In this document: positions 1 through 22,109 of the stretch, in pieces | Layout of the letters: each line of letters starts with the position of its first letter | How positions within the stretch are numbered: the first letter of the stretch is position 1 | Assembly: GCA_963726745.1 (NCBI GenBank) | Contig: CAVSDR010000003.1 | Span: 704,001 to 768,000, forward strand | DNA: 64,000 nucleotides | Source: an uncultured Verrucomicrobiae bacterium | GTDB lineage: Bacteria > Verrucomicrobiota > Verrucomicrobiia > Chthoniobacterales > UBA10450 | Direction: 5' to 3' | Translations under genes and position numbers: made by a program | Notes under the pieces: model-generated | What the model saw: the letters and a program-made list of their open reading frames with translations, nothing else | What the model was told of the DNA's origin: nothing | Database searches by the model: none

Positions 1-1981
1 GCACAGGAAACTCGAAGTCGGTGCCTAAACCAGCGCCGGAAAGGCCAGGCGAATTCACGCTGACCGCCGGCGACGGACTATTAATCAGATTGAATGGCCC
101 CACGCCGCGCGAAGGGCTGTCGATGTAGCCCGGCGCGCTCGCCACCGCGCGGAAGTAGAGTGCGCCGTTCGCCGGATACTTGTTCGAGTCGAGATAGAAA
201 TCGCCGGGATTGCGATAGCGCGCCATCCGTCCGCCGTTGCCGTCGGCCAGGTCGGTCCAATTGCTCTCGTCGCCGGGCGAGGTCGCGCTCTGGATGCGCA
301 TGGAGACGCCGGATGGATGCGCTTCGTCGAAGGCGCGGAAGTTGATCACCGCGCCGGGGCCGTTGCGGGTCGTCGAAAGAATCGTGCGCCCGAGATGCGG
401 CGTGGAAGAGGTGAGATCGAAAGGGCCGACCACATTCGAGCTGCTGGCAGCATGACCGGGCGCGCTGGAAAGCGCGCGGAAGTGCACTCCCGTCACGCGC
501 GGATAGGTCGTGGTGTTCAGCACGTAGGTCTCGTTGGTCACGTCGAAAATCATCCGGCCGAAGCTGCCGTTGTTCAGGTCGGTCCAACTCGCTTCGTCCG
601 CTGGAGTGACCGAGCTTTGCACGCGCACCGCCAGCCGCGCGGCGGTTGAAGGCTGCGTCACCCGCATTCGCAGCACAGAATCCCGCGCGACTGGAACACC
701 CGTCGCGCTGTCGTTCACGGTGAAGCCGGTGGCTGCGGGCAGCGGCGGACCGGGATCCGCGATTGGCCGTGGCGCCGAGAAGAGCCGGGCAACTCGGTTG
801 CGCTGGATGCCCTGGTAGTCGGTAAACAGGCCGCCGATGATGATCTTGCCGTCTACCTGCAAGGCAAGCCCGCGCACATCCGCGCTGGAACCCGGGGTAA
901 GCCCCGCCGCGAACGACGTGTCGTCGGTTCCGTTCGCATTCAGCCGCGCCAGGGCCGCGCGGTTGGCGACGCCATTCACGGAGTTGAAGGCACCGGCGAG
1001 GAGGATTTTGCCGTCGAACTGCACCGCCACCTGGTAGACGACGCCATCCGGTCCCACGCCCGGATCAAAGGTGGTGTCTAACGAGCCGTTCGCGTTTAAC
1101 CGGGCGATCGCGTTGCGCGCGACGCCGTTGAAGCTGCTGAAAAATCCGCCGAGCAAGATCTTCCCGTCGCTCTGCACGGCCACTCCGAAAATCTGCTGAT
1201 CCGCCCCGGTGCCGGGATCGAAGGTGGCGTCGAGCCGCCCTTCTGCATCGAGCCGCGCCACGCGGTTGCGCGGCGTCCCGCGGACATTTTGAAAACTCCC
1301 CGCGATGATCAATTTGCCATCGCTTTGCAACGCGAGCGCGGAGACCGGACCGTTCGTTCCCGGCGCGATGCCTTCGTTGAAGGTGCGGTCGAGCGTCCCA
1401 TCGGCGTTCAAGCGCGCCACGTTATTTCGGGCAATGCCGTTGTAGCTCTCCAGGTAGCCCGCGATCACGATCCGGCCGTCGCCCTGGACGATGATCTCCT
1501 CCACCGTCCCGTTCGCGCTCAAGCCGACGTTGCCGGCATTGAAGGTCGCATCCAGCGAGCCGTTCGGATTGATCCGGGCCAGGCTCTTGACCGGCGTGCC
1601 GTTGTAGCCGGTGAAGAATCCGCCGATTAAAATTTTTCCGTCCGCCTGTGCGGCCACCGCACGAACGTCCTGCACGTTGTTGGTCGTGCCATCGGGCGCC
1701 AGGACCCCGGTGCCGGGATTAAACGTGGCGTCGACCGAGCCGTCGGGATTCAACTGCGCCACGCGCCGGCGCGGGAGATCGTCATAGGTGGTGAAGAGGC
1801 CGCCGATCACCACTTTGCCATCCGCCTTCACCGCGGCGGCAAAAACCGCATCGTCTGCCCCGCGGTTGCCGCCCTCCGCTCCAAAGGAGGGATCCAGGTC
1901 GCCCTCGGCCGCGCGCGCCAGCGAAAGACTCGAGAGCAAAACGGTCGCTAGGGCGCAGGAGGCGAAGAAGGAATGGGGCAT
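1..1981 (-). CDS. Secreted modular protein, paralog 1 (3'-partial): delta-60-type beta-propeller head plus two copies of the family's conserved ~100-aa domain
   Basis: Not in the ORF track because it runs off the window. Manual translation from ATG at 1981 gives MPHSFFASCALATVLLSSLSLARAAEGDLDPSF (signal peptide), repeated 'QxDGKI(L/I)xGGxF...RLNxDGxLDxTF' blades, then 'VRVQSSVTPADEASWTDLNNGSFGRM...HFRALSSAPG' and 'MRIQSATSPGDESNWTDLADGNGGRM...YFRAVASAPGY', homologous to the 2100-6473 protein. Confidence 0.85.
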   Translation of the reverse strand, partial: MPHSFFASCALATVLLSSLSLARAAEGDLDPSFGAEGGNRGADDAVFAAAVKADGKVVIGGLFTTYDDLPRRRVAQLNPDGSVDATFNPGTGVLAPDGTTNNVQDVRAVAAQADGKILIGGFFTGYNGTPVKSLARINPNGSLDATFNAGNVGLSANGTVEEIIVQGDGRIVIAGYLESYNGIARNNVARLNADGTLDRTFNEGIAPGTNGPVSALALQSDGKLIIAGSFQNVRGTPRNRVARLDAEGRLDATFDPGTGADQQIFGVAVQSDGKILLGGFFSSFNGVARNAIARLNANGSLDTTFDPGVGPDGVVYQVAVQFDGKILLAGAFNSVNGVANRAALARLNANGTDDTSFAAGLTPGSSADVRGLALQVDGKIIIGGLFTDYQGIQRNRVARLFSAPRPIADPGPPLPAATGFTVNDSATGVPVARDSVLRMRVTQPSTAARLAVRVQSSVTPADEASWTDLNNGSFGRMIFDVTNETYVLNTTTYPRVTGVHFRALSSAPGHAASSSNVVGPFDLTSSTPHLGRTILSTTRNGPGAVINFRAFDEAHPSGVSMRIQSATSPGDESNWTDLADGNGGRMARYRNPGDFYLDSNKYPANGALYFRAVASAPGYIDSPSRGVGPFNLINSPSPAVSVNSPGLSGAGLGTDFEFPV

Positions 1982-2027
1982 AATTGGGAGCCTGGTCAGC
2001 CAGGCGCAATCAGCCCAGTGCTATACA

Positions 2028-2055
2028 ACGCCGGGAAAAGCCTTCACTTAGCTCA
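2028..2055 (-). promoter_or_regulatory. Candidate ECF sigma promoter TGAGC-N19-GCGT upstream of paralog 1
   Basis: Same two blocks with identical 19-nt spacing upstream of all four paralogs. Confidence 0.55.
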
Positions 2056-19696: not shown

Positions 19697-19699
19697 GCC

Positions 19700-22109
19700 G
19701 TGACGCCCGAACGCTGGCAGCAGGTCAAGGGTCTCCTCGCGCGCGCGCTCGAGCAGCCCGATGGCACCACTCGCGCAGACTACGTGCGCGGCGCCTGCGC
19801 CGACGATACCGGCCTGCGGCGTGAAGTGGAATCGCTCCTGGCGCAGCCGGACGACGAGTTCGATGCCTGCGCGGAGCATCTCGGCTTTGCGCACGCGGAT
19901 CCGTTTGCCGCCGGGCAAAGCGGCCGCCGGCTCGGCGCCTACGAGTTAATCCGCGAGCTCGGCCGCGGCGGCATGGGCACGGTCTGGCTGGCCCGGCGCG
20001 CGGACGAGCACTTCGAAAAGCTGGTCGCGATCAAGCTGCTCAAGCGCGGCACCGATACCGATGAAGTCCTGGCCCGCTTCCATGCCGAGCGCCGCATCCT
20101 CGCGCGCCTGGACCACCCGCACATCGCCCGCCTGCTCGACGCCGGGACCACGGAGGATCGGCTGCCGTATTTCGTCATGGAATACGTCGAGGGCGCGCGC
20201 CTGACCGACTTTGCTTTTGCCGGCAACCTCTCGTTAGGCGAACGGCTGGCGCTCTTCCTCAAGATCGCGCAGGCGGTGCAATTCGCGCACCAAAACCTGG
20301 TGGTCCACCGCGACCTCAAGCCGGGCAACATCCTCGTGACCGCGCAGGGCGAGCCCAAGCTGCTCGACTTCGGCGTGGCCAAGCTGCTCGCACCCGGCGA
20401 CGACCAGTGGGAACGGACCGTTGCCGGGCAGGAGCGCTTTACCCCGGCCTATGCTTCGCCCGAACAAATCCGCGGCGAGACCGATCACCACCGTGAGCGA
20501 CGTTTACTCGTTAGGCGCGCTCCTTTACGAACTCCTCACCGGCGGGCCGCCGCACCGCTTCGCCGGCCGCAGTCCCACGACCACGCAAGTGAGCGAAATC
20601 GTCGGCGAGCGCGCGCCCCGTCGGCCCAGCCTCGCGGCCAGGGACCCCGAGATGCGCCGGCGTTTGCGCGGCGATCTCGACACCATCCTTCTGTGCGCGC
20701 TCGCGCAGGAACCGGAGCGGCGCTATCGCGGCGCGGGACAATTAGCCGACGACCTCCGCCGCTACCTGGCGCACGAACCAGTGGAGGCGCGCCCGGACAC
20801 GCTCCCTTATCGCGCGCGGAAATTCCTCCAGCGCAATCGCAGCCTCACGGCCGCGGCCGCGCTTCTCTTCCTCGCGCTCCTCGGCGGCCTGCTCGCGACC
20901 GCGCACCAGGCACGCATCGCCACGCGCGAACGCCACCGCGCCGAGCGCCGTTTCGGCGAAGTGCGACGCCTGGCAAACAGTCTTCTCTTCGACCTGCATA
21001 ATGCGATCGCCGAGATTCCCGGCGCCTTGCGCGCGCGCCAGATGCTGACCGAGCGCGCGGTCGAATATCTCGACAGCCTCGCGGCCGAGGCCGGCGACGA
21101 TCTCTCGCTCCGGAGCGAACTCGCGGCCGCTTACGACAAGATCGGCAGTCTCACTTTCAACCTGCGCGAAGCGCGCGCCGCCCACGAACGTGCGGTCCAC
21201 CTGGCCGAGGCGGTGGTCCAGGCCGCGCCGGAAAATGCCAGCTATCGCCGACAGCTTTCCGAGAGCTACGATCAGCTCAGCGATGTCTTAAAAATCGCCG
21301 GCGACTCGCAGGGCGCGATCGCGCTCGCGCGCAAGTCGCTGGCTATTTTGCCCGCCGGTCCGGCGTTTGCCCTGGCGCGTGCCGAGCGACACGCAGCGGT
21401 CGCGATTGCGCTGCTGAATGCGGGCGACTTCCGCGCCGCCCTCGAAGAAGTCGAAGCCGCGCGTGCGCTCGAAGACTCGTTAGGCGGCGAGGAACGCGAA
21501 AGCCGCCGGCGCCGGCTGGGTTTGCAATTGCTCGCTGCGGAAGCGCACTCGGAGGCGGGCGATTTCGCCGAGGCGCTCGCGCTGGCCAACGCTGCGACCG
21601 CCGCGGCGGAGGCGCTCGCACAGGAGGAACCGGGAAATAGCCGGCATCTTCGCGATCTTTGGTCGACGCGTTTCCGGCGCGGGCGAATCTACGCGGCCAT
21701 GGGCCAACCGGTGGAGGCGTTGGCGGATTTGCGCAGCGCGGTGGAATACCTCGAAGGCTTGGCCGCGGCCGATCCCAACGACATCGGGCACCGCCGCTGG
21801 CTGGGCGTGACCTATGGCGCCATCGGCCGCGCGCTCGCCGCCACCGGCGACCGTGCCGAAGCGGAGCGTTTCCTGGAAAAAGGACGCGCGATCGCGCAGC
21901 AGTTGGTGACGGACGACCCGCAGCGCGTCGAAGCGCAACTCGACCTGGTGGAGATCGAGCGCGCGCTCGGCGAATTGCCGGCGGCGACGCCGGCGCACCT
22001 CAGCCACGCCGCGCAATTGGCCGAAACGCTCCTGGCCGAGGACCCGGCAAACGTCCGCCTGCAAACCACCGTGGCCGCGCTCCGGGCGGAGTGTGCCCCA
22101 CAAAAATAG
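19700..22109 (+). CDS. Membrane Ser/Thr protein kinase 2 with TPR-like region; apparent +1 frameshift at ~20480
   Basis: GRGGMGTVW, VAIK, HRDLKPGN, DFG, TPAYASPE; removing one base gives RGEPITTVSDVYSLG and joins ORF 20421-22109; TM helix and helical repeats follow. Confidence 0.9.

Follow-up and report, generated by a model that had tools for sequence, protein, structure and literature searches.

Gene layout of two tandem sigma factor/kinase cassettes

We analysed a 64,000-nucleotide (nt) stretch of DNA, hereafter the window, from the genome of an uncultured Chthoniobacterales bacterium, and focus on two adjacent gene cassettes near its start. The genome comprises 3.41 Mb in seven contigs with 65% G+C, and the window corresponds to positions 704001-768000 of contig C3. 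The named relatives of its proteins and sigma factor loci belong to Chthoniobacterales, phylum Verrucomicrobiota. Each cassette joins a gene for a giant secreted protein to a divergently oriented pair of genes, one for an extracytoplasmic function (ECF) sigma factor and one for a transmembrane (TM) Ser/Thr kinase with tetratricopeptide repeats (TPR). An initial annotation of this DNA had recognized that the unit occurs twice (6589-13848 and 13854-22109), and the open reading frames (ORFs) and Pfam matches bear out both its gene order and its coordinates. Based on the combined evidence described below, we consider it likely that the cassettes are two tandem ECF43-type switches wired to the divergent giant genes.

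The minus strand carries four paralogous giant genes, which we call A', A, B and C, and the plus strand carries the two sigma factor/kinase pairs. The window holds the 5' part of A' (2-1981, minus strand), which matches PF17164 (E 5.5e-90) and TIGR02608 and runs off the window start; matches to the middle module and C-terminal domain that form the rest of the protein lie at C3:701731-704736. Gene A (2100-6473, minus strand) encodes a secreted protein of 1457 amino acids (aa) with a signal peptide, a PD40 propeller, a He_PIG Ig domain, the middle module and two PPC-like domains. These are the two additional paralogous giant genes that had been noted before. In B (6589-10633, minus strand) a PD40 propeller, and in C (13854-19003, minus strand) a YVTN/YncE-like propeller, is followed by the middle module and a C-terminal tandem domain. 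On the plus strand, sigma1 (10771-11367) is followed by kinase1 (11364-13848), and sigma2 (19091-19696), a paralog 63% identical to sigma1, by kinase2 (19700-22109). The two kinases share one architecture, in which some 80 aa of N-terminal extension precede the Hanks domain, a single TM segment and the TPR tail.

Two gene starts were revised or chosen among alternatives. The start of C, placed earlier at 18867, is now set to 19003. The ORF of sigma2 opens at 19016, and its most likely start is the ATG at 19091 because the promoter-like motif of C (see below) falls within the longer ORF; the hexamer TATAAT occurs 13 nt before this ATG. A search of positions 1-22500 against Rfam gave no matches, and a terminator scan of 1900-6700 and 10500-22400 found no excess.

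As assembled, the cassettes contain five 1-nt frameshifts that had previously gone unseen: in B near 9462, in kinase1 near 12545 (in the TM segment), in C near 14545 and 18971 (the latter in the signal peptide), and in kinase2 near 20475 (within the kinase domain). Five such breaks within 22 kb could mean that the cassettes are decaying, in which case the frameshifts would be real, kinase1, kinase2, B and C would be pseudogenes, and the switch would be dead in the organism. Counter to this, the essential isoleucyl-tRNA synthetase (37704-40407, minus strand) is split in the same way, into two overlapping ORFs that part at position 184/185 of the tRNA-synt_1 profile, and a frameshift likewise splits the kinase gene in a third cassette (contig C6). 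Independent contigs from one short-read run of a soil metagenome, about 97% identical to the window, have one base fewer at 9462 and at 18971; dropping the extra base restores both reading frames, and C then begins with an ordinary signal peptide. Moreover, both halves of each split gene are similar to intact relatives over the full length. Based on these three observations we read the frame breaks as probable assembly errors, and we regard decay of the cassettes as very unlikely. Two points temper this conclusion: the read contigs spanned only two of the five sites (9462 and 18971), with the breaks near 12545, 14545 and 20475 outside their coverage, and each of the two indels is documented by a single contig, at depths of 2.9 and 2.6. 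Elsewhere in the window, an M4 peptidase/MAM-dockerin gene (51487-55277, minus strand) and a reprolysin-like gene (33713-37700, minus strand) also appear split, and indels seem to occur in the assembly roughly every 5-10 kb.

Sigma factors and their partner kinases

Both sigma factors match PF07638 over nearly the whole protein (E 2.8e-49 for sigma1 and 3.9e-45 for sigma2) and score 183.1 and 175.5 bits against TIGR02999 (cut-off 126.15), a family that we take to be equivalent to ECF43. Their domain content, sigma2 and sigma4 alone, is that of an ECF-type sigma factor. The region-2.2 motif reads HTLQPTALVHE in both, with QPTA in the place of the DAED of ordinary ECF sigma factors, as had been stated initially. 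In sigma1, QPTA occupies residues 61-64, with the threonine at position 63; in sigma2 the equivalent residue is Thr67, counted from the ATG at 19091. Of 17 aligned relatives, 15 share the whole HTLQPTALVHE string and two have QATA, such that all 17 conform to Q-x-T-A and the threonine is invariant. A second alignment of sigma factor relatives likewise showed Q61, P62, T63 and A64 to be invariant. When the sigma factor profile was compared with the PDB, it matched region 4 alone, in two ECF sigma factors.

What is known of ECF43 sigma factors from two papers (PMC13147305, PMC8999054) provides a close parallel. These proteins are described as having no acidic DAED/DxxD patch in region 2.2 and a consensus of QTTA in which the threonine is kept in 88% of members. 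In EcfP (STTA) and EcfK (QATE, T51), the adjacent Hanks kinase phosphorylates the motif threonine (PMC13147305, PMC8999054). The sigma factors of the window show the same hallmarks: a QxTA motif with threonine in third position, an adjacent kinase gene and no anti-sigma gene. A Pfam scan of the products found no anti-sigma domain in the cassettes. Furthermore, the sigma factor and kinase genes overlap or are separated by 3 nt, and 5 nt lie between the ends of kinase1 and C, packing that is too tight to leave room for an anti-sigma gene. Thus, the earlier view of the sigma factors as ECF43-like and free of an anti-sigma partner holds; their assignment to the ECF43 type is supported by the defining features of that type rather than by a curated classifier.

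The kinases match Pkinase (E 3.9e-41 for kinase1 and 6.6e-35 for kinase2), and TPR families match behind the single hydrophobic segment. The catalytic motifs are complete in both (Gly loop GRGGMG, VAIK, HRDLKPxN, DFG and SPE). The closest relative of kinase1 in the PDB is 9eed_A (E 9.3e-50), which corresponds to residues 1-364 of PknS from Xanthomonas citri (PMC13147305). This alignment starts at residue 6 and includes the N-terminal extension, whereas the alignment of PknB to kinase1 begins only at residue 81. The pattern RWxxxK...R..FL...C..D..LR.EVESLL of the extension is kept in 41 sigma-linked kinases from several phyla, and in 64 sigma-linked kinases of other phyla the kinase domain starts mostly at residues 80-105. 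Together, these features support the view that the kinases are PknS-like receptor Hanks kinases. Given the single TM segment, we infer that the TPR region is extracytoplasmic.

It had been observed that the kinase domains are close paralogs and that the TPR regions diverge more. The comparison agrees: the N-terminal 257 aa of kinase2 are 68% identical to those of kinase1, and the TPR part is 31% identical. Across the sigma1-like clade, the cytoplasmic parts of the kinases are 61-67% identical and the tails 30-47%, making the predicted TPR ectodomains the fastest-changing part. The tail of kinase1 is only 31% identical to that of the relative at locus L001, even though the sigma factor of that locus is 78% identical to sigma1. 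This divergence could fit different or fast-changing inputs, weakly so since TPR scaffolds tolerate much change anyway.

The initial annotation had also offered an adhesin or defence system as the role of the locus. For the giant proteins, adhesin remains a fair guess only. Defence against phages would require that the kinases be relatives of the PD-T4-6/Mad6 kinases and that the giant proteins act as effectors or decoys. Indeed, the PADLOC models PD-T4-6 and mad6 match both kinases (E down to 8.9e-67), and the NCBIfam model MADS6 scores 155.9 bits, below its cut-off of 460. However, the PADLOC matches span only the generic Hanks kinase domain (residues ~75-360), and none of the four giant-protein pieces and neither sigma factor is matched. 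In addition, the giant proteins carry signal peptides that predict their export, and PknS, distinguished by its N-terminal extension, is the closest kinase of solved structure. Defence is thus unsupported, and we consider it extremely improbable.

The pairing of sigma factor and kinase extends well beyond this locus. For comparison within the genus, we took 68 further unique loci from about 110 sigma factor matches, chosen by similarity or because they lie on long contigs; together with the five of this genome these make 73 loci, of which 72 include upstream DNA, and the added loci come from genomes other than G001 and G008. A kinase gene adjoins the sigma factor gene in five of the five TIGR02999 sigma factors of this genome and in 68 of 72 genus loci. 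In other phyla (80 loci, eight of them without an ORF to scan, four because the contig ends), 64 of the 72 scanned ORFs downstream of the sigma factor have a kinase domain. The sigma factor is present in 21 of 24 genomes of the genus (19 of 22 if G001 and G008 are set aside), one of which has as many as 14 matches; in other families of the order, 4 of 16 genomes have it. Sigma factor/kinase pairs are very common in soil phyla, with at least 599 stretches among the matches listed in one scan.

This genome itself holds further pairs. The two more distant ones, on contig C2, have neither a divergent giant gene nor the promoter-like motif discussed below. The third cassette (locus L169, contig C6:684000-694000) has a sigma factor 55% identical to sigma1 and the kinase-TPR gene already mentioned as split. 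It is divergent from a gene for a 1790-aa Sortilin/BNR propeller and Big_7 protein and carries the motif TGAGCC-N18-GCGTC.

A promoter-like motif and the proposed wiring to the giant genes

Upstream of A, B and C, on the strand of the giant genes, lies a two-block motif composed of an A/T-rich stretch, TGA(A/G)C(A/C), a spacer of 18 nt (N18) and GCGAG(A/T). All three sites fall 27-50 nt upstream of the genes. That of A (6519-6553, minus strand) reads TTTCG-TGAACA-N18-GCGAGA and ends 45 nt before the ATG. The site of B (10683-10717, minus strand; TTCCA-TGAACA-N18-GCGAGT) lies in the 137 nt that separate B from sigma1 and ends 49 nt short of the ATG; that of C (19033-19067, minus strand; TTTCG-TGAGCC-N18-GCGAGA) lies in the 87 nt separating C from sigma2 and ends 29 nt short of the ATG. 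Gene A' is preceded by a site of a different type, TGAGCT-N18-GCGTT (2027-2055, minus strand; 45 nt before the ATG), which has the -10 box of non-HESYL sigma factor clades such as that of the contig C6 cassette.

Within the window, the derived pattern matched exactly the sites of A, B and C versus 0.08 matches expected, a test that is circular because the pattern was derived from those same sites. A genome-wide scan with an earlier pattern gave 25 matches, five of which have the A/T-rich upstream element: the sites of A', A, B and C and the one on contig C6. A looser pattern, TGARC-N17-19-GCGAGW, was rejected as unspecific (32 matches in the genome versus 22 for the control).

For the counts across the genus loci, the pattern was fixed as TGA[GAC]C[CATG]-N18-GCG[AT][GTC]N, and the loci were grouped by sigma factor. 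Sigma factors with HESYL in region 2, which include sigma1 and sigma2, account for 12 loci; all 12 have the motif on the divergent strand (11 with GCGAG), none has it on the sigma factor strand, and in nine a middle-module gene is divergent. Another 15 loci have other sigma factors at least 54% identical to sigma1. Here the motif occurs on the divergent strand in six, every time with GCGT(T/C), and on the sigma factor strand in none; a middle-module gene is divergent in six. Among the 45 loci with more distant sigma factors, the motif occurs on the divergent strand in one and on the sigma factor strand in three, and no middle-module gene is divergent. The motif had already been defined when seven of the 12 HESYL loci were retrieved, and it is present in every one of these seven. 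The form of the -35 block also tracks orthology: the loci of sigma1 and of the sigma factors closest to it have TGA(A/C)CA, and those of sigma2 and its L003 ortholog have TGAGCC.

The conservation of the triad in related genomes, which had been put forward as a check, is apparent in the HESYL loci. The earlier claim that the sigma factors drive the giant genes stands for B, C and A, given their GCGAG motif and the synteny, but not for A', with its GCGTT box. The fixed strand, spacing and distance to the ATG, and the matched change of -10 box and sigma factor, are as predicted for a cognate promoter. The lack of a motif on the sigma factor strand fits a sigma factor that is made constantly and switched post-translationally.

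Alternatively, the motif could be the site of another regulator or sigma factor, with the kinase-sigma pairs controlling distant genes and their adjacency to the giant genes being inherited baggage. In favour of this, the motif is known for one genus only, as it was found in 0 of 78 related-sigma loci of other phyla in either orientation, and its GCGAG box is unusual among ECF promoters and departs from their usual CGT core. Several further points weigh against direct wiring. The counts overstate independence because the genus loci are kin, and part of the likeness upstream of A, B and C is inherited because these genes are paralogs. Also, a consensus scan of 1900-6700 and 10500-22400 found no sigma-70-type promoter for the sigma factor genes. 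Arguing against another regulator, on the other hand, are the two-block layout with its fixed 18-nt spacer, strand and distance to the ATG, and the way the -10 box follows sigma region 2 (GCGAG with HESYL in 11 of 12 loci, GCGT(T/C) in six of the six motif-bearing loci of the close clade) and the -35 form follows sigma factor orthology. On balance we find control by another regulator unlikely, and wiring of the sigma factor/kinase pairs to the divergent giant genes well supported by computation.

Starting from the observed gene content, motifs and synteny, and from the covariation of the promoter motif with sigma factor type, we propose the following mechanism for the switch. The sigma factor alone would bind RNA polymerase poorly because QPTA replaces the acidic DAED patch of region 2.2. 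Its partner would be a membrane Hanks kinase with the kinase domain in the cytoplasm and the TPR domain outside. Upon a signal from outside, the kinase would phosphorylate the threonine of QPTA (Thr63 in sigma1), and the sigma factor, now charged, would guide the polymerase to a dedicated promoter, TGA(G/A/C)C(C/A)-N18-GCGAG(A/T), before the divergent giant gene. In this way sigma1 may drive B, plus A through a near-copy of the B promoter, and sigma2 may drive C. Since the GCGTT type goes with non-HESYL clades, A' probably belongs to the channel of another sigma factor of the family, perhaps that of contig C6. Against a switch centred on this one residue, a T51A variant of X. citri EcfK still works and a linker threonine also counts (PMC13147305); thus, the QPTA threonine may not be the sole switch.

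The proposed switch closely resembles EcfK/PknS of X. citri, in which the sigma factor lacks an acidic patch, has threonine in third position (QATE, compared with QPTA here) and is encoded beside its kinase, with no anti-sigma (PMC13147305). PknS itself shares the extension of about 80 aa, the Hanks domain, the single TM segment and, as predicted, the outside TPR with the kinases studied here (PMC13147305). The two systems differ in that EcfK keeps one acidic residue and sigma1 and sigma2 keep none, and in their targets, which for EcfK/PknS are type VI secretion genes induced by amoebae and here would be single giant secreted proteins (PMC13147305). Unlike EcfK/PknS, the cassette here is tandem-duplicated and part of a genus-wide expansion. 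In the loss of all acidic DAED residues the sigma factors are more like EcfP (STTA) of the EcfP/PknT system of Vibrio parahaemolyticus, which is intrinsically inactive and is switched on by its neighbouring kinase through threonine phosphorylation (PMC8999054, PMC13147305). That system responds to polymyxin stress and controls a polymyxin-resistance regulon, and its kinase ectodomain and targets are others (PMC8999054, PMC13147305). The layout also recalls FecI/FecR/FecA, where a dedicated ECF sigma factor sits beside the gene for a large exported protein that it switches on and the signal enters from outside the cell. The relay here would be a Hanks kinase, in contrast to the FecR-type anti-sigma and TonB-dependent transducer of that system; a Pfam scan of 12 products found no FecR, TonB-receptor or Plug domains.

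The switch mechanism is thus already known from ECF43/Hanks kinase pairs of the EcfK/PknS type, and our findings leave what is known of it unchanged. New here is the ECF-type promoter motif. The locus differs from the known pairs in its predicted targets, single giant secreted proteins in place of a secretion system or resistance regulon, in its tandem duplication and in the genus-wide expansion. The pairs reported as tested come from Vibrio, Xanthomonas and Hyphomonas (PMC13147305, PMC8999054), and for most ECF43 sigma factor/kinase pairs the regulated genes are not known. Among the papers searched, none joined Verrucomicrobia and ECF43, or Chthoniobacter, ECF and protein kinase. The locus offers a predicted regulon map, with a defined promoter and a target assigned to each sigma factor, in an uncultured member of Chthoniobacterales. 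In addition, the natural variants of sigma factor and -10 box look mutually insulated, which may provide a phospho-switchable and possibly orthogonal set of sigma factors and promoters.

Some features of the promoter regions stand apart from this argument. At all GCGAG-type sites, the -10-like box gives way to a purine-rich tract of about 12-15 nt (e.g. GGGAAAGAAGG), here at 6505-6518, 10668-10682 and 19019-19032 (minus strand) and also at loci L001-L003; the distance of this tract from the ATG is too great for an ordinary ribosome-binding site. The spacer of the B promoter (10687-10708, minus strand) is a near-perfect inverted repeat, AACAGAAC ... GTTCTGTT, which may be due to chance or may form an extra operator. 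The spacers of A and C contain weaker inverted repeats of differing sequence. One locus, L010 (G002:C10:884500-904400), is an exception to the tight layout, in that small genes separate the sigma factor gene from the divergent middle-module gene, and no motif was found there.

The giant secreted proteins and neighbouring genes

Signal peptides are predicted in A', A, B and C. Their N-terminal modules differ, being delta-60/DUF5122 in A', a TolB-like PD40 propeller and He_PIG in A, PD40 in B and the YVTN/YncE-like propeller in C. Common to all four is the middle module of about 700 aa, which no other gene of this genome holds. No Pfam family was found for it, a PDB search gave just a small Fn3/Ig-like piece, and its protein-atlas score of 0.80 is uninformative. 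Among 8000 candidates scored, the middle module occurs in 159 proteins at E <= 1e-10, and every NCBI-named one comes from Chthoniobacterales or Verrucomicrobiota. The N-terminal domains of these database proteins vary as well (YncE, PD40, Laminin_G_3, dockerin, DUF11, NHL).

The last 256 aa of A were predicted to form two beta-sandwich domains (pLDDT 90.8). The top Foldseek match of this model is 5iku (E 4.1e-8), but the TM score is 0.30, and the VIA Z values of 7.6, 6.5 and 6.1 over ~95-100 residues are below the tool's clear level. The best fold matches are ColG s3a-s3b (5IKU, 1NQJ), PPC and the Tk-SP jelly roll (3AFG); a Pfam scan of these domains gave no PPC match. With identities of 12-19% and Z below 8, the comparison speaks only to a shared fold and not to function, and the targets here, unlike those proteins, have no attached protease domain. 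Because about 33 different genes of this genome end in the C-terminal tandem domain, it appears to be a general C-terminal module of exported proteins. From these sequence features, the giant targets appear to be one Chthoniobacterales-specific family with an exchangeable N-terminal module, a conserved middle and two PPC/collagen-binding-like domains. A large uncharacterised family of giant secreted proteins is thereby linked to predicted inducible, signal-dependent expression.

A more speculative extension is that the giant protein serves the switch as its outer sensor as well as its output, which would make the system a Hanks-kinase counterpart of cell-surface signalling. The exchangeable N-terminal module (propeller, lectin or Ig) would bind an environmental ligand or cell, and the middle or C-terminal part would signal to the TPR ectodomain, leading to phosphorylation of the sigma factor and to more of the same giant protein. 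Matched variants (HESYL/GCGAG and HEAYL/GCGTT) would then provide several insulated sense-and-amplify channels per genome. We hold this dual role to be unlikely.

The 3' ends of the giant genes are unusually alike. The last ~900 nt of A and B (2100-3000 and 6589-7490) are 93-98% identical at the DNA level, followed by an abrupt drop to 50-70%, and C shares the last 700-800 nt (13854-14650) at 75-99%. Such a sharp boundary points to recent gene conversion between these clustered paralogs or, alternatively, to an artefact of assembly.

Further genes for large proteins lie beyond the cassettes. A Kelch-like gene (25524-27374, plus strand) contains six repeats of ~141-150 nt (25601-26537), and its C-terminal tandem domain is 47% identical to that of A. 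An ORF of 685 aa on the other strand (24867-26924) is likely to be spurious. A Big_3_5/CSLREA gene for a 1654-aa protein (27544-32508, minus strand) has 6- and 12-nt repeats (GGAGTC, then GGCGTT units) at 27513-27858; located at the 3' end of the gene, these encode a low-complexity C-terminal tail. At 61285-63999 (plus strand), a further large gene with a PD40 propeller extends past the end of the window.

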